This document shows, piece after piece, positions 2,852 through 61,301 of a DNA stretch of 64,000 nucleotides. The notes under the pieces are model-generated. The model was given only the letters and a program-made list of their open reading frames with translations, ran no database searches and was not told the DNA's origin. Each line of letters opens with the position of its first letter. The first letter of the stretch is position 1. A program made the position numbers and the translations under genes. Source of the stretch: an uncultured archaeon (lineage in GTDB: Archaea > CAYFZR01); assembly GCA_964347835.1 (NCBI GenBank), contig CAYFZR010000065.1:19496-83495 (forward strand), read 5' to 3'.

Positions 2852-3268
2852 TTAGAAGGGTCATGTCGTCAGAATTAACAATCGTTTTCTTATCAAAAAT
2901 AGTCATTCAAATGTCTTTTTTACCAACGAAGCCCAAACCATGATCTAAAATGAATTATCAGTAATTATTATAAAATCAAAAATCCTTATTTGGGTTCTAT
3001 TTCAAGAATTGGACTCTCTAGTTCATTTTCTGAATACAAAAAGGAAAATTTCATCTATATAGCTGATTATATCGGTAATTGTATTTAAACCGCAAAATAC
3101 TTATGTTTCGTGAAACTTAGTAAAAACACTTGGTGGGGGAGGACAGATAATATGTTTTTATTTTGAATCTGAATTAGCGTTGAAAACCTAGCATTAAACT
3201 TTTTTTAAATTTAACGCCAAGGAGGGGCGCTATGATAAAAATACTAATTAAAAGGGGAGGTGAAATAA

Positions 3269-3844
3269 ATGGAAATGTACAAAATGGGATTGATACTTTC
3301 ACTCCTGCTAATGATAGGATTAGTAGCAGGCTGTATTGGAGCAAAAGAGAAAGCGGCTGCACCCACGACACCAGCCATCCATGCTACAGGAAATATAGTC
3401 ACCATCATACCCTGCTCTGCCCCTGACGTGGATTGCATGTTCGAACAAAAATTCGGTGACGAGCTAATGAAGACCCGAAATCAATACAGTATATTTACGG
3501 GAACCATGGAGGGAACCGGGACCGGCGTGAATAGCCAATTAATAAACCTAAAGACGGGTAAAGCATTCAACTCGGCGTACGGTCACTTTGTCGGAACAGT
3601 GGGCGACTCAGAACCAGGCAGCTTCGCACGCTTCTGGACGTGGACCCTTGATATCCCAGCCTTACGTGGTGAAGAAGGTAATTACACGTGGGAAGGCTAC
3701 CATTGGGTTATCGAAGGCACCGGCATGGGTGGCCTGGAGGGTATCTGTGGAGGAGGAACCTTTGAGGGCTATGGTACGCCTGAGTTAGGCTTCACCACCA
3801 CCTATGACTTCGAGTTCCGCTTCGGCGAAGCTTGCAAAGAGTGA
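3269..3844 (+). CDS. Putative secreted lipoprotein, paralog 1 of a tandem pair
   Basis: 191 aa. Signal peptide with lipobox LVAGC. GGAGGTGA lies 7 nt upstream of the ATG. Confidence 0.6.
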   Translation: MEMYKMGLILSLLLMIGLVAGCIGAKEKAAAPTTPAIHATGNIVTIIPCSAPDVDCMFEQKFGDELMKTRNQYSIFTGTMEGTGTGVNSQLINLKTGKAFNSAYGHFVGTVGDSEPGSFARFWTWTLDIPALRGEEGNYTWEGYHWVIEGTGMGGLEGICGGGTFEGYGTPELGFTTTYDFEFRFGEACKE

Positions 3845-3912: not shown

Positions 3913-4158
3913 TAAAATACTAAACAGGATCTTAGGTTGAACTAATATCGGTAACTTTCACAAAATCGAAAATTACTTATATTTCGGAAAATACAAAGTA
4001 ATCTACCTTAATTTAGCGCCGATGGAGGGGGGCAGATAACATGTTTTATTTTAAATCTGAATTAGCGTAGAAATTCTGCTATTAATTATTTTTTTTAATT
4101 TAGCGCCGAGTGTGGGGCGCGATGATAAAAATACTAATTAAAAGGGGAGGTGAAATAA

Positions 4159-4728
4159 ATGGAAATGTACAAAAAGGGATTTTTGCTACTGTTAATGATA
4201 GGATTAGTAGCAGGCTGCATTGGAGCAAAAGAGAAAGCGGCTGCACCCACGACACCAGCCATCCATGCTACAGGACAGATAGTCACCATCATACCCTGCC
4301 AAGCCCCTGACGTGGATTGCATGTTCACCCACAAATTCGACAACGAGATAGTAGACACCCGAACTGCATACAGTATATTTACGGGAACCATTGAGGGAAC
4401 CGCGACCACAGTGCAGAGCCACACGCTAAACCTAAAGACGGCTAAAGCAATCGCCTCGGGGTACGGTCACTTTATCGGAACAGTGGGCGACTCAGAACCA
4501 GGCAGCTTCGCACGCTTCCAATCGGCTACTTGTGATGTCCCACGCTTACGCGGGGAAAAAGGTAATGTCACGTGCGAAGGCTACCTTCGGGTTATCGAGG
4601 GCACAGGCTTGGGTGGCCTGGAGGGTATCTGTGGAGGAGGAACCGAGAAGACCACGGGTTCGCCTGAGTTAGGCTTCACCACCACCTATGACTACGAGTT
4701 CCGCTTCGGCGAAGCTTGCAAAGAGTGA
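4159..4728 (+). CDS. Putative secreted lipoprotein, paralog 2
   Basis: 189 aa with the same signal peptide, lipobox and leader as paralog 1. A central patch diverges (FWTWTLDIPALRGEEGNYTWEGYHW versus FQSATCDVPRLRGEKGNVTCEGYLR). Confidence 0.6.
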   Translation: MEMYKKGFLLLLMIGLVAGCIGAKEKAAAPTTPAIHATGQIVTIIPCQAPDVDCMFTHKFDNEIVDTRTAYSIFTGTIEGTATTVQSHTLNLKTAKAIASGYGHFIGTVGDSEPGSFARFQSATCDVPRLRGEKGNVTCEGYLRVIEGTGLGGLEGICGGGTEKTTGSPELGFTTTYDYEFRFGEACKE

Positions 4729-6179: not shown

Positions 6180-6287
6180 TCAGTTCACCTCTGTTTGTAT
6201 TTTTCTGATTAGGATTTACCTGTATAAGAGTGTTACCTCAAAATCTTCTACCCTTATTAATAGTTTCTTTATTTTTCACATCCTTCT

Positions 6288-6523
6288 AGAAGGTGGTAAT
6301 ATTATACTTTATACTGAAATTATCTTATTCTAACCTATCACCCCCTCTCTACACCCCCATATAAAATTTAGAGTAGAGAACAAATATAGAGAAGAAAACG
6401 ACTCATTCGGTACCGTTAATAAAATAATTTTAGGTTAGTTATTATCTTTCTTTTGATCGAACTTTTTTTAAAAGTTCATTGCGGATGGAACGAGCCACAT
6501 TCCATAGCTAGCCACGTTCCATT
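6288..6523 (+). repeat. Copy A of a modular intergenic repeat family (P module + S module + hairpin H module)
   Basis: Contains agaaggtggtaatattatactttatactgaaatta..tatcaccccctctctacacccccatataaa..tttagagtagagaacaaatatagagaagaaaacgactcattcggtaccgttaataaaataatt..gaactttttttaaaagttcattgcggatggaacgagccacattccatagc. Near-identical to 31095-31392 and 56781-57047. Confidence 0.8.
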
Positions 6524-8152: not shown

Positions 8153-9073
8153 ATGAAAGAAAAAAATATCCTTGTAACAGGAGGTTGCGGATTTATAGGT
8201 TCTCACATTGCTGAATACTTTTGCGAATCGAATTATGTTACTATTGTAGATAACCTCTCAGCAGGTAGTTTGGAGAACATAAAGAAATTTAAGGATAGAA
8301 TTGTTTTTTTTAAGTCTGACTTGAACGATTTACCTAAATTAAACTTAGAAGATATAGATATAGTGTTTCATACCGCGGCGAGCGTATCTATAGAAAAATC
8401 TATCGAGGATCCTTTATTCGATGCTCAGACAAACATATTGGGTATCTTAAATACATTAGAAATGTGCAGAAAAAAGAATATAGAGAGATTTGTTTTTTCT
8501 TCCTCATCATCTGTATACGGAGATCCAACATACCTTCCTGTAGACGAAAAACATCCCTTAAATCCTAAGTCTCCCTACGCGATAAGTAAAAAGACTGGAG
8601 AAGATTACTGTAAAATTTACAACGATTTGTATGGATTGAAAACTGTTTCTTTAAGATATTTCAATGTTTTTGGACCTAGACAGAGAGCAAGCGACCCTTA
8701 TTCCGGAGTAATACCTATATTCTTGAATAAAATTAGGGAGCAAAAAACGCTTCCCATATATGGAGATGGAAATCAAACCAGAGATTTCATTCATGTTAAA
8801 GACGTTGTAAGAGCGAACATACTTGCTAGCAAATCAAAAGAGGCCACAGGAAATAAAATAAACATCGGGACAGGAAAAGAAACAAGTGTAAACCAACTTG
8901 TAAAATTATTACGAGATATATCTGGAAAAGAGTTGTCTGTGGAATTTCATCCACCGAGAGAAGGTGACATAAGAAAGAGCGTCGCTGACGTTTCTTTAGC
9001 GAAAAAAGTTCTTAAATTTGATGTCCTTACAACGTTAAAAGAAGGGTTGACAGATTTGTGGAAAAAAATATAA
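8153..9073 (+). CDS. NAD-dependent nucleoside-diphosphate-sugar epimerase/dehydratase (UDP-glucose 4-epimerase-like)
   Basis: 306 aa. Rossmann motif TGGCGFIGSH, catalytic YAISKK (YxxxK) and an SDR-extended layout. Confidence 0.85.
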   Translation: MKEKNILVTGGCGFIGSHIAEYFCESNYVTIVDNLSAGSLENIKKFKDRIVFFKSDLNDLPKLNLEDIDIVFHTAASVSIEKSIEDPLFDAQTNILGILNTLEMCRKKNIERFVFSSSSSVYGDPTYLPVDEKHPLNPKSPYAISKKTGEDYCKIYNDLYGLKTVSLRYFNVFGPRQRASDPYSGVIPIFLNKIREQKTLPIYGDGNQTRDFIHVKDVVRANILASKSKEATGNKINIGTGKETSVNQLVKLLRDISGKELSVEFHPPREGDIRKSVADVSLAKKVLKFDVLTTLKEGLTDLWKKI

Positions 9074-9117: not shown

Positions 9118-9813
9118 ATGAAAAAAGCGATTATAATCTCATTGGTCCTTTTGGCTTGTATTGGTTCTGTAAATTCTGCAGAAATCGACTCTCTCTTCGT
9201 ATCAAACAATGTTGTTTACATCTTATCTGATGATACCTTAACTGCTTTAAGCGAAGATGGTATACTCCTCTGGAAAACTAGGGCTAAAAACATACTTACA
9301 AGAGCGAATGGAGTGTTGTATGTTGTTTCAGATGGTTATCTTAAAGCCTTAGATCAGTACTCTGGAGAGGAGATATGGAAACTAAATATAGTTCCCTCTT
9401 ACCTCAGATACTCCAACAACTTACTCTATGCATACAATGGAGAAAAACTCAAAGTTCTGGACAAGAGAGGTTTGAGTATGTGGGAGACGGATGCTAGTTC
9501 TGAACCATTATTTTCCTCCGGAATTATATACTTAAGATCTAATGGCGAAATTTTAGCCTTAAATCAATATACAGGGGAAATATACTGGAGTTTTAAGGAT
9601 ACGGGTTATCCTCTCTTCGTATCAAATAATGTTGTTTACATCTTATCTGATGATACTTTAACTGCTTTAAGCGAAGATGGTATACTCCTCTGGAAAACTA
9701 GGGCTAAAAACATACTTACAAGAGCGAATGGAGTTTTGTATGTTGTTTCAAATGGGTATCTTAAAGCCTTAGATCAATACTCTGGAGAGGAGATATGGGA
9801 AATTCTCGTTTAG
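9118..9813 (+). CDS. Secreted PQQ-like beta-propeller repeat protein with recent internal duplication
   Basis: The track ORF starts at 9085, but the signal peptide begins at the Met at 9118 (MKKAIIISLVLLACIGSVNSA). Repeats of the G.LYVVS.GYLKALDQYSGEEIW type. Confidence 0.6.
   Translation: MKKAIIISLVLLACIGSVNSAEIDSLFVSNNVVYILSDDTLTALSEDGILLWKTRAKNILTRANGVLYVVSDGYLKALDQYSGEEIWKLNIVPSYLRYSNNLLYAYNGEKLKVLDKRGLSMWETDASSEPLFSSGIIYLRSNGEILALNQYTGEIYWSFKDTGYPLFVSNNVVYILSDDTLTALSEDGILLWKTRAKNILTRANGVLYVVSNGYLKALDQYSGEEIWEILV
9189..9798 (+). repeat. Intragenic direct repeat: two near-identical segments of about 190 bp (9189-9378 and 9609-9798), period 420 bp
   Basis: ctctcttcgtatcaaa.aatgttgtttacatcttatctgatgata.cttaactgctttaagcgaagatggtatactcctctggaaaactagggctaaaaacatacttacaagagcgaatggagt.ttgtatgttgtttca.atgg.tatcttaaagccttagatca.tactctggagaggagatatgg occurs twice, differing at only a handful of positions. 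Confidence 0.85.
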
Positions 9814-9903: not shown

Positions 9904-10149
9904 TTACGTTAAGATATCCATCGATTCGTAATCGTCAATGTCTTCGTAAAGCAATATCCTTGTTATATACGCGCGAAGTTCTTCCATTCTATGCAAAATA
10001 AATTGTACGTCTTCATGATCTCTATCCTTGACCTTTGGACTGCTGAGTATACTGATGAGAAAATTATGGCATTCCATGAGATTATTTTCTAACTCAAGCA
10101 ATTTATTCAAGGTTTCGATGTACTTTAATTTATATTCCATATACTCCAC
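9904..10149 (-). CDS. Hypothetical small protein
   Basis: 81 aa ORF with acidic C-terminus. Confidence 0.3.
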   Translation of the reverse strand: MEYMEYKLKYIETLNKLLELENNLMECHNFLISILSSPKVKDRDHEDVQFILHRMEELRAYITRILLYEDIDDYESMDILT

Positions 10150-12502: not shown

Positions 12503-13648
12503 TCAAGAGGACTTCCTTCCTCTAAATTCCATATACAAACTGTAATTGGTTATTAAAATAGCCCCCAGTCCAAAGATAATGGCAAAAAAGCTGATTATGC
12601 CTCCCAAATAAGGAATCCAAGTAACGAATAACAGTATGAAAAGCCCTAGTAAAAGTCCCCAGTACTGAGACGGGGTCTTCTCTTTGTAAAGCCGTTTAAG
12701 TGTCTCGTTTCCGATTAACAACCCTACGTAGATCTTACTGATGTAAAGAGTTATTATATAAAGTGCAAGAACTATCAAGGCCACAGGAATACCTACGATT
12801 GTTATCATAAGTATGAAGCTTGTTATAGGAATAATAAACAAAGCTATAAAACCTACGATGCCGGTTTTCAATGGAGAAGTTAAAATCGTATTCGTTATAT
12901 TGGATGAAACATCAGGAACGAAATAGATTAAAAGCGCCCCTAAAATCAATAACCATGTAAGCCCCAGTAATTTACCTAAGATTGTGCCTCCAATTCCTTT
13001 CTTCGGTTTTGCTGGTTTTTCTACAATTGTTGGTATAATTTTTCCATGAACGACAGCGCCTTCTTGAATAACTACCTCTTTTTGGCTTTTATATTTCAAG
13101 TTTCCCCCAATATCTGCAGAAGAAGAAAGAGTCAGACTATCACATTCCAAGGAAACGTCTCTTCCCACTTTTCCATTTAATCGAAATTCTTCTCCACCAC
13201 CTCTCAAGTCTCTTCCAACATCTCCGTTTATAACAATTTTACCTCCACCTACTATCAGGTCTCTACCAGTTTTTCCATTGATCTCCAAAGTTCCTCCGGC
13301 CAAGAAAGAATCGCCAATTACATCGGAACCAATCCTTACGTTGCCTCCCGCTGCTTTTAAATTATCTTTGACCGGGCTTTCAACGATAACAGTCCCTCCA
13401 AAAGCGAAGAGACTTCCGGACACATTGCCGTTTTGAATTATGGTTCCCGCAAATGCATAAACATCGCCATCCACGGTTCCTTCAATTGTGACGTATCCTC
13501 CAAAGAGATAGACATCATCTTCTATTGTCTGATCTTTGGCTATAGTAACAGTTTCTTCGGAAATAAACTCAGCGGCCGTAGATAATGATATTAAGATAAA
13601 TATCGAAAAAATTGAGAATAATAGCAATTTATTTTTTAGTCTCATCAT
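12503..13648 (-). CDS. Bactofilin-like (polymer-forming, Gly-rich beta-helix repeat) domain fused to a C-terminal multi-helix membrane domain
   Basis: 381 aa. Signal/anchor at the N-terminus. Repeated GDVYAFAGTI..GSLFAFGGTV..AAGGNVRIG..LAGGTLEING..VGGGKIVING motifs, then about five hydrophobic helices. Confidence 0.5.
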   Translation of the reverse strand: MMRLKNKLLLFSIFSIFILISLSTAAEFISEETVTIAKDQTIEDDVYLFGGYVTIEGTVDGDVYAFAGTIIQNGNVSGSLFAFGGTVIVESPVKDNLKAAGGNVRIGSDVIGDSFLAGGTLEINGKTGRDLIVGGGKIVINGDVGRDLRGGGEEFRLNGKVGRDVSLECDSLTLSSSADIGGNLKYKSQKEVVIQEGAVVHGKIIPTIVEKPAKPKKGIGGTILGKLLGLTWLLILGALLIYFVPDVSSNITNTILTSPLKTGIVGFIALFIIPITSFILMITIVGIPVALIVLALYIITLYISKIYVGLLIGNETLKRLYKEKTPSQYWGLLLGLFILLFVTWIPYLGGIISFFAIIFGLGAILITNYSLYMEFRGRKSS

Positions 13649-16177: not shown

Positions 16178-16603
16178 ATGAAAATATCCCTGGTCAAGGA
16201 TATAATGATTGAAGAAGTTCTTTTCACAGACGTTTCTTCTTCCATTAACGAAGTCGCGAATCTCATGAGTACAAAAGACGTCGGAAGTCTCGTTGTTATA
16301 GAAGATGAAAAACCTATAGGCATTATAACCGAGAGAGACATATTGAAGAAGGTGGTAGCAAAAGGGTTGGATCCCGGGGAAACTAAAGTTTCAGAGATAA
16401 TGCATACTCCCCTTATAACCATAGATTCAGAATCCTCAATATTTCAAGCAGCAGAATTGATGAACATAAACAAGATAAGAAGGCTTCCTGTAGTCAAAGG
16501 TGAGAAAATAGTAGGTATAATAACCGTTTTCGATATAATGAGTCATTACAGAGAGGTTGCTGGTTGGATAATCGAGACATTAACTCCGATGTTTCAGCCT
16601 TAA
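16178..16603 (+). CDS. CBS-domain pair protein
   Basis: 141 aa with two CBS motifs (GSLVVIED.., RRLPVVKGEKIVGIITVFD). Confidence 0.8.
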   Translation: MKISLVKDIMIEEVLFTDVSSSINEVANLMSTKDVGSLVVIEDEKPIGIITERDILKKVVAKGLDPGETKVSEIMHTPLITIDSESSIFQAAELMNINKIRRLPVVKGEKIVGIITVFDIMSHYREVAGWIIETLTPMFQP

Positions 16604-16606
16604 CAC

Positions 16607-16903
16607 GACCTTCAAAAAGGTCGATCATTTGGTCGAATTCGCTAACGCGAATTCAACAACTCAAATAGCAATAAACGTGCGATCTTCAAAACGCTCAACA
16701 ATCGAGGATTCTCGTGAGAGGTCGATCATTCGATAACATCGCAACCTTTTATAAAGGTTGAACAAAGGCACCACCTCCACCTTTTATAAAGGTGGAGCAA
16801 TGCTACTCCTGTTTGAGATGTTGAATTGCGAAGCAATTCGACCTGATGATCCACCTTTCAGAAGGTGGAATTCGACCTGATGATCCACCTTTCAGAAGGT
16901 GGA
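16607..16903. repeat. Array of about eight short hairpins/palindromes, including a 34-bp tandem direct repeat, directly upstream of tRNA-Ile
   Basis: cgacc-ttcaaaaa-ggtcg, gaattcgc-taac-gcgaattc, caacc-ttttataaa-ggttg, ctccacc-ttttataaa-ggtggag, gaattgc-gaa-gcaattc, and attcgacctgatgatccacctttcagaaggtgga x2 (16836-16903). Confidence 0.75.
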
Positions 16904-16907
16904 GGTT

Positions 16908-16982
16908 GGGCTCGTGGCTCAGACTGGTTAGAGCGTCCGGCTGATAACCGGGAGGTCCGGGGTTCAAATCCCCGCGGGCCCA
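16908..16982 (+). tRNA. tRNA-Ile (anticodon GAU)
   Basis: Cloverleaf read by hand: acceptor GGGCTCG/CGGGCCC, anticodon stem TCCGG/CCGGG with loop CTGATAA, T-arm CGGGG-TTCAAAT-CCCCG, discriminator A. CCA not encoded. Confidence 0.8.
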
Positions 16983-17088
16983 TCTAAACTTTATATCTGC
17001 TATTTTTAATTCTGGATAGATAAAACATTCGATATGTATCAAAAATATGATAAAACTATTTCGACTATGAACTATGAAGTTGAGTTAA

Positions 17089-17778
17089 ATGCCGTATTTG
17101 GTTATAACTTCAAAAGAAAAGAGACCGCGTAATGAGTTAGAGAGATTAGGTTGTGAAATAATTTGCAGATATCTGTGGTTTGTTCCGAGGGATAAGATTA
17201 CTAAGATAAAAAGTGCCTTAGACCAAGATAATTACCTTCTATTTCAAAAAACCAAGATTAAAAAGTCTAAACTTGAGAGAAAAGGTCAAAAAATTGGATT
17301 TACTTTAATCGCCTACGATACATCTAAAAGCGATGATAAGGGGCGAAAAGCAATAAAAAGAGTTCTTTCAAAGGCTCCTTGTCTCATGCTTGCCAAATCC
17401 ATTTATATCTTCCCTTATATAGAAAAAAAACCGAAGATCCCTGATATAAGCACCGTTGAAAAAGTTATTACTGAAAATAGAGGTAATATAACTAAAATTG
17501 GTACTCTAATTCCCATAGAGTTTACTACTGAGAAATTAAGAGAGAGAGCAAAAATTGTTTTAGAAGAAGAGGCAAATAAATTGATGGAAATGACGGAACA
17601 TATCGCTACTGATGAAACTTCTATAAAAAAACACTCGAGCCAAATTAGAGCGTCCCTTATCAACCTAAAACTCAAATCTAAAATTTTTGACTTATCCTTC
17701 CGTATGGAAACTAAACAGGAATTGGGTAAAAAATTTACTAAGATATATAAAACATTGGGTAAGTTCCATGAAACTTGA
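17089..17778 (+). CDS. Lysine-rich hypothetical protein
   Basis: 229 aa basic ORF directly downstream of tRNA-Ile. The segment FTLIAYDTSKSDDKGRKAIKRVLSKAPCLMLAKSIYIF only loosely resembles the Cas2/VapD-type beta-alpha core. Confidence 0.35.
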   Translation: MPYLVITSKEKRPRNELERLGCEIICRYLWFVPRDKITKIKSALDQDNYLLFQKTKIKKSKLERKGQKIGFTLIAYDTSKSDDKGRKAIKRVLSKAPCLMLAKSIYIFPYIEKKPKIPDISTVEKVITENRGNITKIGTLIPIEFTTEKLRERAKIVLEEEANKLMEMTEHIATDETSIKKHSSQIRASLINLKLKSKIFDLSFRMETKQELGKKFTKIYKTLGKFHET

Positions 17779-17852: not shown

Positions 17853-18479
17853 TTAGCCCCAAATAAAATCTCTGTAACCGGCGAATAGTAGAGTTATCAA
17901 AAAAACTGCGGCCATAAAAAGCCATGGGCTGAAGAGCCAGAGAATTACAATAAGACTGTAAAGCACACCTCTGCTACCGAGAGTGTAAAAGCTGCAACCT
18001 CTGTTCAACAAATTGCCAAGGTATTCATGCTTTGCCATGCCTGTGTGATCCGTTATAACGTCTGAAGGTGTCGTGGTAAATAGGCAGACGAGGCGGTAAT
18101 ATCGAAGAGACGAGACGAAAAACATGAAAGATATGGCTTGAATGGCTACTATAAATAGAATTTTAAACTCGAATAATAAAACGTCTGCAAAAATTCCAAA
18201 ACTTTTAGCATTTATCAACAAGTTGAGAAGTATGCCCGCAAATATAAGGGTTGCAGAAGCAAAGAGAATGCTCACCGAAATCACGTCTCTGAGCTGTTGA
18301 ACCAGAAGTATATGTTCTTCTTTGTTAAGCACATACTCGATTCCTTTCTCTCTAAAGAGGTTTGCGTGAGACTTTACAGTTCTATCTGGCCTTCTACGGT
18401 GCAATAGAAGATACGCGCCATGGTAACCTGCAAAGCTAATCAAAAAAATGATGAGGGCAATCTGATCCAGAAGTTCCAT
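17853..18479 (-). CDS. Polytopic membrane protein
   Basis: 208 aa with five to six hydrophobic helices. Confidence 0.45.
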   Translation of the reverse strand: MELLDQIALIIFLISFAGYHGAYLLLHRRRPDRTVKSHANLFREKGIEYVLNKEEHILLVQQLRDVISVSILFASATLIFAGILLNLLINAKSFGIFADVLLFEFKILFIVAIQAISFMFFVSSLRYYRLVCLFTTTPSDVITDHTGMAKHEYLGNLLNRGCSFYTLGSRGVLYSLIVILWLFSPWLFMAAVFLITLLFAGYRDFIWG

Positions 18480-31092: not shown

Positions 31093-31094
31093 TT

Positions 31095-31392
31095 AGAAGG
31101 GGGTAATAATACATTTTATACTGAAATTACCTTATCCTAACTTATCACCCCCTTTCTAAACCCCTATATAAGAGGAGAAGAGAATAACATTAATTTCATA
31201 ACGTAATTATCCTATCTTACCTTATTAACCCCTTTATACACCTCCATATAAAGAAGGGGGTAAATCACCCCTTTCTAAACCCCCATATAATATTTAGAGT
31301 AGAGAACAAATGTAGAGTAGAAAAGGACTCATTTGGTACCGTTCATAAAATAATTATTTATAATATTGCGGGTGCAGCGAGCCACGCTGCAT
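31095..31392 (+). repeat. Copy B of the modular intergenic repeat family (three P sub-modules + S module + hairpin)
   Basis: agaagggggtaataatacattttatactgaaatta...caccccctttctaaacccctatataa...cccctttatacacctccatataaagaagggggtaaatcacccctttctaaacccccatataatatttagagtagagaacaaatgtagagtagaaaaggactcatttggtaccgttcataaaataatt...ggtgcagcgagccacgctgca. Confidence 0.8.
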
Positions 31393-31523
31393 AGTGTCAA
31401 TTTTTCCAACAAATTTGAAATATGTGCTATTGTCGAAAATGATTTAATAATTTTTCGAAAAATAAATCTGTCTATTTTCCCTCAAATTTGTAAACCAAAA
31501 CTCTATGGCTTAAAAGAGACATA

Positions 31524-56611: not shown

Positions 56612-56780
56612 CAAAGGCGAAAATTTAGAAAAATCATATATTTCGGTTATTGCCGATCGTTGATCGTAAAAAATAAAAATAAATTGTTGATAATTAATTT
56701 TAGAGGGCTTGTGCCCTCTGCCCCCCCCATTTTTCAAGATTTTTCATTGTTTATCAATTAGGTGCAGTTTTTTGATTAAG

Positions 56781-57047
56781 CTTTTTTTAAAAGTTCAAAT
56801 GTAACGAGCCACGCTAGAAGGGGGTAATAATACATTTTATACTGAAATTATGCTATTTTACCTCATCACCCCCTTTCTAAACCCCCATATAAAGAAGGGG
56901 GCAATCGCCCCCTCTCTACACCCCCATATAATATTTAGAGTAGAAAAAGGCTCATTTGGTACCGTTTATAAAATATCTTTCTTTTGATTGAACTTTTTTT
57001 AAAAGTTCATTGCGGATGGAACGAGCCACGTTCCATAGCCACGCTGC
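56781..57047 (+). repeat. Copy C of the modular intergenic repeat family (half-H module + 2 P sub-modules + S module + full H module)
   Basis: ctttttttaaaagttcaaatgtaacgagccacgct-agaagggggtaataatacattttatactgaaatta...caccccctttctaaacccccatataaagaagggggcaatcgccccctctctacacccccatataatatttagagtagaaaaaggctcatttggtaccgtttataaaat...gaactttttttaaaagttcattgcggatggaacgagccacgttccatagccacgctgca. Confidence 0.8.
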
Positions 57048-57050
57048 ATT

Positions 57051-59045
57051 TTATTCATTTTCATTCGTTCTCAAGAGTTCTTTCGCTCTTCTCTCTTTGT
57101 ATTCATAGATGATATCCTCGATTGTGTCTAAATGTTCCATATCTTTTTGTTTTTTATCTTCCAATAGCCAATTCTCAATTTCTTTCTTGAAGAGTTCTGA
57201 ATCTATAACTGCAAAATCGTCAACATGTCTGAGTTTTACCTTATCAGGATCTATTATAGGAATATTCTCTTGTTTAAATACCTCTTCTGCTACGTGTGAC
57301 ATCCCTTTTTTCGCTATGATACATTTTGCGCCTTTCGCCAATGATTTTGCTGTGGAGGCTCCACCTCCACTCACATCCATAATGTATATAACATCGTTAG
57401 AGAGTCCAACTTGGTCTTTTAATTGTTTTATACAGTCTTTAGAGAATGTGTTCAGTATTTTAACTGGTTTTATCTTTTTTGAGGGTTCTAAAGAGTGAAT
57501 TCTTTTTAATCTTTGAAGTTCTTTTGCATATCTTGAGGATCTCTCCTTTTCCTTAATTATTTCTGTTTTTAAATCTTCAATCATTTTTTCTTTTGCTCTA
57601 AGAAGAGTATCTTTTCGTATCTCTATATCTTCCTCTTTTACGATTCTTTCGAGTTTTATTTGTAACTCATTTTTCTCAGAAATTATTTTCTCCTTTTCTT
57701 CTATTAAAAATACGTTTTCTTCCTCTAATCTATCAATTCTCTTTTCTAATTTCTTAATTTTGTTTATAAAATCTTTCAAATCATCTTTTTCTGGGTGCTT
57801 CTCCACTACTTTCTTTGTTTTCTCTTTTTTCTCGGTTACCATATTGACAGCATCTCTCAGCGTGTAGCCTTTTATCGTTAGTTCCTTTATTTTATTAACG
57901 TCCCCCTTGAAACCAATATCTTCTAGTTTACTACTTATCTGTAAAAATTTATTTTTATAAGAATTAAATGCCTTGATGGCAGCTGCTAAAGAGTCTCTCT
58001 GATGGGAATCGTTGGGAGGATGTATTTTCTCTTCCATTATGTAAGCGTTGACAATTTCCCTCTTATCCTGTACGCTTAGTTGATCGTGAGAAATCAACTT
58101 AGCATTAAATATTGCTGATATCTTTTCAATCTGTTTTGGAGGAGGGTGGATATCTGTTGTTACTATCACAGGAGTGCCGAATTTTCCTACAAAATTTATT
58201 ATGTCGCTTCTTGACATATTTTTCATACTTTTGATGGATAAAAGGCGACCATTGAGATCAAGTATTGATAAACCCGTTGTCGTTCCAGGATCTATTCCCA
58301 CAATCAAAGGAGAAGATTGTTTTCTCTTTTCAAATGTTTTCATTCTTGTTGGTTTTACTGTAACCCTGACGTCAGGACCTTTTACTTCTCTTAAAAACTT
58401 CTTAATCTTAGGGTAGGTTGCATAAGCAGTAAATTCGCTTCTAGAATATCCTTGATCTTTGGTTTTAATATTTAAGTCATAGTCAATACTTTTTTCATCT
58501 AAGTTTCGTTTAACCTCTCTTGTAACCTGCTGGATCAGATTGTGAATCTTTCTTCTGTATCTTGCTTGGCTAAATCCCCCCGGTCCAATGCTTCTTGCTC
58601 TACTCACAATGATTTTGGTAGCGTCTTCAATTTGTGCTATTTCTGTTCCTATACCCTTATCTGCGAGTAATGCACATACACAGGCTTCTTCTAATGAAGA
58701 AGCCCTCTCTCCGAGATGGATTCCATATTTTTTAGCGATTTTATGCAGGGGAATTTGTTTCCCAAATGTGCCAGTTACTTGGACGATTCTGGTTTCTGGA
58801 GATAAATTATCCAAAAAACGTTTCAGGCGCCTCCTGTTAGGTACTAATTCATATACGTTATCCGTGGCGAGTATATTCGGCTTTTCTTTGTAAATTAGCC
58901 TTAAAAGTTTGTGATAGCTGACTCTTTCAAAAGAAAAAACGACGCTACCATCTTTTACTCCAACGGCAGAGAAGTATGGTTGTCTTTTTCCTCTAATTGA
59001 GCCGTATACAACATCGACTCCTACTGTGCGCAAATATACCACCAA
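57051..59045 (-). CDS. Archaeal COG2433/DUF460-type protein: RNase H-fold (RuvC/YqgF-like) domain plus long coiled coil
   Basis: 664 aa. IVGIDPGTTTGLSILDLNGRLL (RNase H-like first strand), central Lys/Glu-rich coiled coil, conserved N-terminal domain. Confidence 0.55.
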   Translation of the reverse strand: MVVYLRTVGVDVVYGSIRGKRQPYFSAVGVKDGSVVFSFERVSYHKLLRLIYKEKPNILATDNVYELVPNRRRLKRFLDNLSPETRIVQVTGTFGKQIPLHKIAKKYGIHLGERASSLEEACVCALLADKGIGTEIAQIEDATKIIVSRARSIGPGGFSQARYRRKIHNLIQQVTREVKRNLDEKSIDYDLNIKTKDQGYSRSEFTAYATYPKIKKFLREVKGPDVRVTVKPTRMKTFEKRKQSSPLIVGIDPGTTTGLSILDLNGRLLSIKSMKNMSRSDIINFVGKFGTPVIVTTDIHPPPKQIEKISAIFNAKLISHDQLSVQDKREIVNAYIMEEKIHPPNDSHQRDSLAAAIKAFNSYKNKFLQISSKLEDIGFKGDVNKIKELTIKGYTLRDAVNMVTEKKEKTKKVVEKHPEKDDLKDFINKIKKLEKRIDRLEEENVFLIEEKEKIISEKNELQIKLERIVKEEDIEIRKDTLLRAKEKMIEDLKTEIIKEKERSSRYAKELQRLKRIHSLEPSKKIKPVKILNTFSKDCIKQLKDQVGLSNDVIYIMDVSGGGASTAKSLAKGAKCIIAKKGMSHVAEEVFKQENIPIIDPDKVKLRHVDDFAVIDSELFKKEIENWLLEDKKQKDMEHLDTIEDIIYEYKERRAKELLRTNENE

Positions 59046-61239: not shown

Positions 61240-61297
61240 TTTATTTCAGTATAAAATTATTCTTAATAAATTAGCGTGTGCAGCGAGCCACGCTGCT
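61240..61297. repeat. Partial copy D of the repeat family: inverted P-module fragment plus CGAGCCACG hairpin
   Basis: tttcagtataaaat is the reverse complement of attttatactgaaa. gtgcagcgagccacgctgc is identical to the copy B hairpin. Lies directly after the stop of the 61302-61778 gene. Confidence 0.6.
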
Positions 61298-61301
61298 TAA
61301 C

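Follow-up and report, generated by a model that had tools for sequence, protein, structure and literature searches.

An intergenic spacer was analyzed in a 64-kb stretch of DNA from an uncultured archaeon (64,000 nt; contig CAYFZR010000065.1, positions 19,496 to 83,495 of the forward strand), hereafter called the window. The spacer (16604-16906) lies between a CBS-domain gene and a tRNA-Ile(GAT) gene. Judged from its sequence, it is composed of two inverted copies of a non-coding, hairpin-ended repeat of ~95-165 nt, and the outer end of the second copy has been duplicated once more by 34 bp. The repeat belongs to a family which, on the contigs compared here, is multi-copy and dispersed, is bounded by inverted hairpin termini, and varies between strains and species. 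The favoured reading of the array, to which I would give a probability of about 0.72, is a cluster of mobile repeats resembling MITEs (miniature inverted-repeat transposable elements) and REPs (repetitive extragenic palindromes), although it departs from canonical MITEs. The following features were delimited, with H1 to H4 standing for the hairpins of the element and primes for those of the second copy.

16178..16603, plus strand: CBS-domain gene, a 141-aa open reading frame (ORF) with a Pfam CBS match (E=2.2e-29); left boundary of the spacer.
16606..16760, plus strand: element copy A, ~155 nt, from H1 to H4; nhmmer match to a 92-nt module at 16606-16693 (E=9e-25), with a layout that aligns with loci L019, L027, L040, and L026.
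16606..16628, plus strand: H1 of copy A, CGACCTT-CAAA-AAGGTCG (16606-16623), and its ATCAT tag (16624-16628); the 20-mer family of 31 metagenome loci.
16635..16654, plus strand: H2 of copy A, GAATTCGC-TAAC-GCGAATTC, an internal hairpin seen in the inverted-repeat analysis.
16680..16735, plus strand: degenerate second H1-like unit, CGATCTTCAAAACGCTC ... AGGTCGATCATTCGAT, recognized by direct repeats and similar to the unit after the module in L015/L026.
16742..16760, no strand assigned: H4 of copy A, TATA-like, CAACCTTT-TAT-AAAGGTTG; a homologous H4 lies at the equivalent position in L019, L027, and L040.
Between copies A and B: a joint of 14 nt.
16775..16797, no strand assigned: H4' of copy B, TATA-like, CTCCACCTTT-TAT-AAAGGTGGAG, an inverted repeat 110-132 nt upstream of tRNA-Ile.
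16775..16869, minus strand: element copy B, internally shortened, ~95 nt, with H4' as its inner end and H1' as its outer end beside the tRNA; nhmmer match at 16868-16780 (E=9e-21) and inverted repeats.
16823..16839, minus strand: H2' of copy B, GAATTGC-GAA-GCAATTC, from the inverted-repeat analysis.
16835..16903, plus strand: 34-bp x2 duplication of the outer end of copy B, comprising the linker, TGATGAT, and H1' TCCACCTT-TCAG-AAGGTGGA (16850-16869 and 16884-16903); Tandem Repeats Finder (TRF) score 138.
16907..16984, plus strand: tRNA-Ile(GAT), called by ARAGORN and by the Rfam tRNA model (68.1 bits); right boundary of the spacer.

An alignment of the window with L019, L027, and L040 gave a common layout of ~150-165 nt, which consists of H1, ATCAT with a linker, H2, a conserved body, H3, TTTGAT, and H4. 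The family H1 is CGACCTT-CWRA-AAGGTCG followed by ATCAT, with the stem variants CGACC/GGTCG, CCACC/GGTGG, and CAACC/GGTTG; H3 is CTACCTCC-GAAG-GAGGTAG, and H4 is TGATC followed by CNACCTTT-WWW-AAAGGTNG. The 92-nt module runs in the order H1, ATCAT, the linker YWGGTMGA, H2, and TCAACAWCTCAAATAGCAATAAACG. H4 together with its preceding TGATC is the inverted counterpart of H1 plus GATCA; the two ends of the element are thus terminal inverted repeats of ~22 nt, each of which is a hairpin in its own right (H1+GATCA and the reverse complement of TGATC+H4 agree at ~18 of 22-23 positions). The TATA-like "loops" of the window are the AT-rich centres of these H4 termini. In the window, nhmmer matched the module at exactly three places, namely 16606-16693 on the plus strand, 16868-16780 on the minus strand, and, as a partial match in the duplicated end, 16902-16868 on the minus strand. 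The H4 doublet with its ~16-nt gap (16742-16797) was also found in L019. The spacer has no coding capacity; the sole ORF across it (79 aa, minus strand, 16803-17042) runs antisense through tRNA-Ile and was discounted as a gene.

In the three Hydrothermarchaeota H1 variants (window, L015, L016, L019, L027, and L040), the H1 loop is complementary to the four nucleotides that lie 5′ of TGAT (CUGA/UCAG, CAAA/UUUG, and CUAA/UUAG). This 4-nt complementarity suggests a pseudoknot or an alternative hairpin. The pairing fails in the main variant of the copies with a high guanine-plus-cytosine (GC) content described below, and the pseudoknot was therefore set aside.

An earlier note on this DNA, made from the letters alone, had counted about eight hairpins within 300 bp, a perfect 34-bp tandem repeat just before the tRNA, and two TATA-like motifs, and all of these are present. 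Five NNACC-N8/9-GGTNN hairpins lie at 16606, 16742, 16777, 16851, and 16885; together with those at 16635-16654, 16703-16714, and 16823-16839, the total is 8-9. When the whole window was scanned for 5-bp stems with 6-10-nt loops and a 5′ arm ending in CC, ACC/GGT hairpins were found elsewhere only at 12849 and 53404, neither of them with a T-rich loop. However, the description of 5-bp stems with AT-rich loops of 8-9 nt was an over-reading. The true stems are 7-10 bp long, being extended through T:A pairs, and the loops are 3-4 nt, as in CGACCTT-CAAA-AAGGTCG and CTCCACCTTT-TAT-AAAGGTGGAG. TRF also reports the tandem repeat as perfect (34 bp x 2.0, 16835-16903, score 138); it ends 3-4 nt 5′ of tRNA-Ile, which starts at 16907 by ARAGORN and at 16908 by Rfam. 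Both of the TATA-like motifs are TTTTATAAA. In its entirety, the spacer forms a large imperfect palindrome, the arms of which lie at 16596-16673 and 16804-16912, and the folding check that had been proposed gave a structure far more stable than shuffled sequences (z = -9.3 for the plus strand and -8.65 for the minus strand; 0 of 100 dinucleotide shuffles were equally stable). The earlier judgement that this is not a CRISPR array was also sound: the units are irregularly spaced and lie in both orientations, the sequence between the hairpins is conserved across loci, and TRF, repeat analysis, and nhmmer found no CRISPR periodicity with unique spacers in the array.

Is this unit confined to the tRNA-Ile locus? 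A 20-mer chosen to include the window's H1 variants, ACCTTCWRAAAGGTSGATCA, was run against public metagenome contigs and gave 31 loci, of which a few were to be expected by chance. Nine of them are in JABAOF01, the assembly that also holds the near-identical contig L001 described below, and one is in JABAOH01; four or five (L014, L020, L036, and L039) are chance matches as judged by sequence context and tetranucleotide signature. The tetranucleotide signatures of the larger low-GC contigs (L019, L026, L029, and L035) correlate with that of the window at r = 0.83-0.92 (0.96 between the two halves of the window). The 92-nt nhmmer profile matched L015/L026, L019, L027, and L040 at E = 1e-19 to 1e-25 and found partial copies in L035, L029, L016, and L034. 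By these signatures, the module is present at ~8 or more other loci of what appears to be the same Hydrothermarchaeota population. The earlier note had listed recurrence of the motif elsewhere among the points to be checked, and many further loci do carry it.

The copies lie in varied intergenic DNA, including gaps between convergent or divergent genes, and a tRNA gene is found within ~150 nt at 8 of ~26 family loci. In L019, the H4 doublet lies directly against a tRNA 3′ end. The element (E) of L019 and of L027 stands between direct repeats (X) of 19-28 nt in an X-E-X pattern. H1 units are stacked at the element ends in L016, L029, and L040; thus, the 34-bp duplication in the window looks like a recent case of a recurrent process. 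Clusters with alternating orientation were found not only in the window but also in L040 and in L032, where two inverted units surround a tRNA fragment.

The orthologous locus was then compared among relatives. The protein-L-isoaspartate methyltransferase (PCMT) encoded nearby shares 87% identity with its counterpart in a Candidatus Hydrothermarchaeota metagenome-assembled genome, and the next relatives reach at most 64%. Identity between the window and JABAOF010003819.1 (L001) is 99.8%, and the single-nucleotide differences are scattered, indicating a different strain or population. L001 has only one 34-bp unit in its spacer and is otherwise identical over 541 nt. L001 is a scaffold with runs of N; the apparent indels at ~9974-10022 (window 18322-18445) are assembly gaps, and so, probably, are some at other places. 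Since a 68-bp tandem is shorter than the read length, the difference of one 34-bp copy between L001 and the window is probably real. The closest relative beyond this strain is the one with the 87% PCMT; known from two separate assemblies (L002 and L003), it has ~80% nucleotide identity and retains the gene order TrmB ... DUF371-CPxCG-PCMT-CBS-tRNA-Ile, and its spacer is just 53-55 nt. This short spacer has one TATA-like box ~48 nt upstream of tRNA-Ile and contains fragments that match the units: AACCTTTATAAAA is part of H4, and TGATAAACATTTCAGA matches TGATCCACCTTTCAGA. A more distant relative (L007) has a 53-nt spacer between CBS and tRNA-Cys. The comparison of the region upstream of tRNA-Ile, which had been proposed as a check, therefore bears out the array in the 99.8% strain, less one 34-bp unit, but not in the 80% relative.

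Two observations on these relatives may be added. In L002, a 71-aa ORF ~180 nt downstream of tRNA-Ile (8449-8664) encodes a tyrosine integrase fragment from the C-terminal end (Phage_integrase in Pfam, E=9.5e-15, covering positions 114-170 of the 172 in the profile), which marks the locus as an integration hot spot and a synteny break point. In L010, a distant Hydrothermarchaeales contig, the 27 nt that precede tRNA-Thr (tRNA at 1662-1735 on the minus strand; region at 1736-1765) are CAACCTTTTTGAAGGGAAGAGGTTG, so that the leader position of this tRNA holds an H1-like ACCTTTTTGAAGG core, as in the window.

A related type of element was found at 17 of the 31 scan loci. Most of these contigs have a GC content of 62-72%, and 13 come from one Joint Genome Institute (JGI) metagenome; L018 (53% GC) and L028 (42% GC) belong to other lineages. 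L022, in which one protein is labelled Candidatus Thermoplasmatota archaeon, is the sole high-GC contig identified directly. All copies of the high-GC type carry CGACCTTCAGAAAGGTCGATCATCA, and H1 is kept in them without a TATA-like sequence. A second hairpin lies ~6 nt past this sequence; its letters vary among copies while its pairing stays perfect. Across the two phyla (Hydrothermarchaeota and, with the reservation given below, Thermoplasmatota), the H2 stem is perfect and at least 7 bp long in 16-17 of 23 copies, occurs in at least nine stem sequences, and keeps a constant distance after ATCAT. Compensatory variants of the window's H2 in other copies include GCATTGC/GCAATGC, GAGTTGC/GCAACTC, and GAATTGC/GCAATTC. 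Judged by such substitutions, the hairpins are kept by compensatory changes.

Direct repeats of at least 16 nt abut H1 in 12 of the 17 copies of the high-GC type, compared with 47 of 5100 control positions. They are 16-92 nt in length, and the left copy ends 0-8 nt from H1. In L028, L032, and L037, the repeats are 3′ parts of tRNAs starting in the T-loop. In L025, the repeat is a tRNA fragment from the T-arm to the 3′ end plus flank; this is a tRNA-Tyr with a short variable arm, presumably the form typical of archaeal and eukaryal tRNA-Tyr. In L041, it is the 5′ part of a tRNA plus 40 nt upstream. For L012 and L024, the repeat is the final stretch of a protein gene (25-92 nt), ending with the T of the stop codon; the element supplies GA, giving TGA in place of TAA, and the protein is unaltered. 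In the tRNA cases, an intact tRNA is retained on one side. The junction at H1 is precise, the element beginning with (C)GACC, and the last ~6 nt of the adjoining repeat copy are often mutated. The other end is variable both in length (47 to ~300 nt) and in sequence. TRF found no tandem arrays at the high-GC loci; thus, X-E-X there represents a single insertion with flanking repeats. By their anatomy, the flanking duplications in the high-GC relatives are of the insertion type, with the target gene left intact.

L028 deserves a separate description. In the region 1470-1730, after a tRNA, it has a 78-nt element with H1, H2, and an H4-like GTCGACTTTT-CTT-AAAAGTCG, placed between 47-52-nt repeats of the tRNA 3′ end, and further similar hairpins follow downstream. 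As L028 is a 42% GC archaeal contig of another lineage, the family extends past the two named phyla.

From this anatomy and from the presence or absence of copies among relatives, I infer that the element is or was mobile and that it is non-autonomous. How might it move? H1 with ATCAT would be the recognition end for an enzyme acting in trans, and the substrate would be a folded single strand, either single-stranded DNA (ssDNA) or RNA. Copying and pasting primed at widely staggered nicks would then leave long target duplications of variable length. With their precise H1 ends, their variable other ends, and their duplications of 16-92 nt, the relatives fit such copy-and-paste better than cut-and-paste by a DDE enzyme. 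The variant with long duplications may reflect a new mobility mechanism. A more ambitious version of the proposal is speculative, and I consider the odds to be against it as a whole: the family would be an undescribed class of archaeal non-autonomous mobile elements, found at least in Hydrothermarchaeota and Thermoplasmatota, with a single-stranded and possibly RNA intermediate, a precise H2-ATGAT-H1 end, insertion at staggered nicks, target-rescuing duplications of 16-92 nt, and a chemistry that is SINE-like (short interspersed nuclear element) or otherwise new, and two copies of it would have become the leader and promoter region of tRNA-Ile.

Several points weigh against mobility or against the reach of the comparison. 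No clean target duplication was detected around the two copies in the window, and no transposase, integrase, or reverse transcriptase was found beside the copies in L019, L026, and L028, no genome-wide search having been made. The long variable duplications are not known from any characterized prokaryotic transposition chemistry. The loci assigned to the same organism are metagenome contigs, placed there by the assembly they come from, their GC content, and their tetranucleotide signature, and the name Thermoplasmatota was extended to the other high-GC contigs by their shared GC content and, for 13 of them, also by the same metagenome. Since the search used an exact pattern, the invariance of H1 in the high-GC copies is partly an ascertainment effect. 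Given the fragments of units in the 55-nt spacer of the closest relative, either an expansion of the array in the window or its collapse in the relative may have taken place. Finally, a role as a small-RNA gene or as regulatory hairpins could coexist with mobility.

How is tRNA-Ile transcribed behind such an array? Insertion of the elements would have displaced the original promoter. The elements separate tRNA-Ile from any CBS-proximal promoter, and the only TATA-like candidates are the H4 hairpins; thus, H4', the TATA-like sequence closest to the tRNA, would be the likeliest present promoter. Its centre lies 121 nt upstream of tRNA-Ile in the window and 87 nt upstream in L001, and the other TATA-like centre lies at 156 nt. 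In archaeal core promoters, the TATA box is centred about 25-30 nt before the start site and has a purine-rich B recognition element (BRE) upstream of it; no such BRE was seen beside either centre. Transcription from H4' would produce a pre-tRNA-Ile with a 60-95-nt leader of H2 and H1 hairpins, which RNase P would remove. The proximal TTTCAGAA units, at -14 and -48 of tRNA-Ile, are not TATA-like, and they are unlikely to be promoters because the nearer unit is only 14 nt from the tRNA while the AT-rich boxes of other tRNAs in this group lie 27-48 nt upstream. TTTTATAAA occurs six times in the window, twice in the spacer and once 32-40 nt upstream of tRNA-Glu, the window's other tRNA, where a TATA box is expected. 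One of the TATA-like hairpins may still act as the tRNA-Ile promoter at present.

This is different from the first suggestion of the earlier note, that the array consists of stacked promoter or regulatory sites for the tRNA. Spelled out, that suggestion would make the TTTTATAAA hairpins BRE/TATA elements and the flanking dyads binding sites of a repressor or activator tuning tRNA-Ile. The box before tRNA-Glu, the AACCTTTATAAAA shared between H4 and the position ~48 nt upstream of the relative's tRNA-Ile, and H4' as the spacer's sole TATA-like sequence ahead of tRNA-Ile all speak for such sites. However, the same hairpins are element termini at loci without a promoter role (the tRNA 3′ end in L019, and gaps between convergent or divergent genes), no TATA-like sequence accompanies the H1 that the high-GC relatives share, the TATA-like hairpins lack a purine-rich BRE and stand at a distance of 110-165 nt from the tRNA instead of 27-48 nt, and compensatory changes in stems indicate a folded single strand over protein half-sites. 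With the tRNA-Ile of the closest relative managing with a 55-nt spacer, promoter stacking is unlikely as the reason for the array. A structured RNA is a more serious possibility, if still not the favoured one. Each unit would be a structured small RNA gene or part of one, the array would be a cluster of small RNAs or a long structured pre-tRNA leader, and dispersal would occur by duplication or retroposition. The compensatory substitutions in H1 and H2 in both phyla, together with the conservation of ATCAT as a single-stranded linker, agree with this, as do the stable folds of single elements (z = -2.6 to -5.3), the precise H1 end opposite a variable end, the pattern expected if an RNA whose 3′ end is defined were copied, and the precedent of a MITE-like element that doubles as a C/D small RNA in Pyrobaculum (PMC6009581). 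On the other hand, no Rfam family matched at gathering or permissive thresholds, the UGAUGA...CUGA-like motifs fail the C/D spacing (9 nt) and the D box in this organism is CAGA, UUGA, or UAGA, the orientation to neighbour genes is inconsistent, and the high-GC copies have no conserved promoter. Moreover, ssDNA hairpins such as REPs or the ends of insertion sequences of the IS200/IS605 family would covary alike. The earlier suggestion of a small structured RNA thus gains the compensatory changes in hairpins but finds no Rfam match.

The other part of the earlier note's reasoning concerned a scar of repeated integration and excision at the tRNA gene. In this case, the array would be made of attachment (att) sites left over from viruses or plasmids integrated by a tyrosine integrase. 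The Phage_integrase fragment directly after tRNA-Ile in L002 and the high-GC flanking repeats that often start in the tRNA T-loop, like integrase att cores, are what would be expected, and a duplicated tRNA part does bound the insert in several high-GC relatives. In the window, however, no duplicated tRNA-Ile fragment was found anywhere (no second copy of the 3′ 33 nt at up to 3 mismatches), and the array is located 5′ of the tRNA. Each locus has different flanking repeats while the inserted 47-106 nt are constant, unlike an element bearing attP; some repeats are the 5′ part of a tRNA plus upstream flank (L041) or lie inside protein genes; and no integrase stands beside the copies examined. 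Repeated insertions and duplications with a preference for tRNA flanks (8 of ~26 loci) survive from that suggestion, and att scarring itself is very unlikely. Hardly credible is a purely local accident, in which slippage and template switching at a palindromic promoter would have produced the array with no family and no function and the 34-bp repeat might be an assembly artefact. It is true that the near-identical contig is missing the duplication and is a scaffold with N gaps, and that the short spacer of the relative contains stretches similar to the units. However, local slippage cannot account for the presence of the 92-nt module and the H1...H4 layout at many unlinked loci, a tandem of 68 bp is below the read length and should assemble correctly, and stacked H1 units are also found in L016, L029, and L040. 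A mobile repeat cluster akin to MITEs and REPs is preferred to all of these.

Other identities were sought in databases and by inspection. Rfam searches at gathering and permissive thresholds, covering the window, the spacer, 20 related loci, and one high-GC element, returned only tRNAs and noise; the C/D models scored far below threshold (sR10, 10.8 against 45 bits). A box C/D RNA or kink-turn was rejected on the 9-nt spacing, the degenerate D box, the lack of C'/D' boxes, and a competing perfect 7-bp hairpin, and a hammerhead ribozyme suggested by CUGAUGA was rejected because no GAAA follows stem II. No match to the spacer was found by blastn among phages and plasmids, and scans of viral contigs gave only chance matches in coding regions (the helicase-like region of L043, and L044). 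A scan of genome contigs with AAAGGTSGATCATYWGGTCGAA gave one chance match in an alphaproteobacterium, that collection evidently not containing the window's genome. A literature search on the literal motif returned no papers, and the topics of MITEs, REPs, and Hydrothermarchaeota led only to analogues. The neighbouring genes encode PCMT, CBS, an unknown ORF, DUF599, and lysine aminomutase. A replication origin was set aside, as no orc1/cdc6 is among the called genes of the locus; the similarity to origin recognition boxes was judged by eye.

A few other features of the window were noted. A second, unrelated multi-copy family of intergenic repeats lies at 6287-6508, 31094-31393, 56770-57039, and 61251-61299. 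Its units are ~80-300 nt long with 72-97% identity and have TAGAAGGGGGTAATAAT...CACCCCCTTTCTAAACCCC plus the hairpin GCGGATGGAACGAGCCACGTTCCATAGC; they occur in none of the fetched loci, and the neighbouring ORFs have no informative Pfam match except DUF460 (57051-59045). The 229-aa ORF right after tRNA-Ile (17089-17778) is 100% conserved in L001 and has no significant family match; the one hit, to PaaX_M, the 'Cas2-like' central domain, was below threshold (E=0.016, 15.7 against 24 bits). At 3156-3596 and 4044-4480, a tandem duplication with a period of ~890 bp comprises two paralogous ORFs of ~190 aa and their upstream regions at 80-87% identity. A 96%-identical internal repeat with a period of 420 bp (9191-9381 and 9611-9801) lies in an ORF for a PQQ-like beta-propeller.

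For annotation, what seemed to be a bespoke regulatory array becomes a recognizable repeat family, and caution is advised before TATA-like hairpins are called stacked tRNA promoters. For uncultivated archaea, the documentation of small REP/MITE-type hairpin repeats is poor. The present family combines a near-identical 20-25-nt hairpin plus tag at 36% and 70% GC in two phyla with covariation, a preference for tRNAs and gene ends, and long, variable, gene-sparing duplications. If mobility is true, an enzyme or mechanism not yet recognized would be indicated, and the element would offer a convenient marker for variation among strains of these lineages.

How does the family compare with known systems? 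Only by analogy does it resemble non-LTR (long terminal repeat) retroposons and SINEs, which share a precise structured end, a variable or truncated other end, target duplications that are variable and at times long, and sloppy nucleotides at the priming junction; in contrast to them, it has no A-tail, and a target-primed mechanism is not established in archaea for such elements. A MITE-like C/D-box small-RNA element has been described in a single species, Pyrobaculum calidifontis (Lui et al. 2018, PMC6009581). It is likewise archaeal, multi-copy, small, flanked by inverted repeats, small-RNA-like, and located in unstable intergenic regions, but the family described here has no canonical C/D/C'/D' boxes or guide spacing, is unrelated in sequence, and spans at least two phyla.

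REPs, bacterial interspersed mosaic elements (BIMEs), and REP doublets forming hairpins (REPINs) are mobilized by Y1 transposases of the REP-associated tyrosine transposase (RAYT) type; their units are imperfect palindromes of 20-40 nt, and the RAYT (Y1 HUH) gene is present as a single copy in the same genome. They have in common with the present family a hairpin plus a single-stranded tag, intergenic clusters with alternating orientation, and a frequent position right after stop codons. Also in common are stems kept by compensatory changes and the larger hairpin that a pair of inverted units makes (PMC3116915, PMC3733652). They differ in that the tag here is ATCAT/TGATGAT instead of GTAG or CGTC, the host is archaeal, the copy number is seemingly modest, and there are extra internal hairpins and a conserved body of 50-100 nt; REPs also lack long target duplications. 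The target duplications of MITEs are 2-10 bp (PMC11602168), whereas the window copies have no short fixed duplication and the repeats of the relatives are variable at 16-92 nt; each terminus here is itself a hairpin, and one end is variable in the relatives. The likeness to MITEs lies in the length of ~95-165 nt, within the MITE range of about 50-800 bp, the non-coding, multi-copy, intergenic character, the terminal inverted repeats of ~22 nt (at least 10-15 bp in MITEs), the strong fold-back, the dispersed copies on the contigs, and the presence or absence among close relatives. By this comparison of sequences, the family is a small, hairpin-terminated, dispersed repeat akin to the MITE and REP/BIME kinds.

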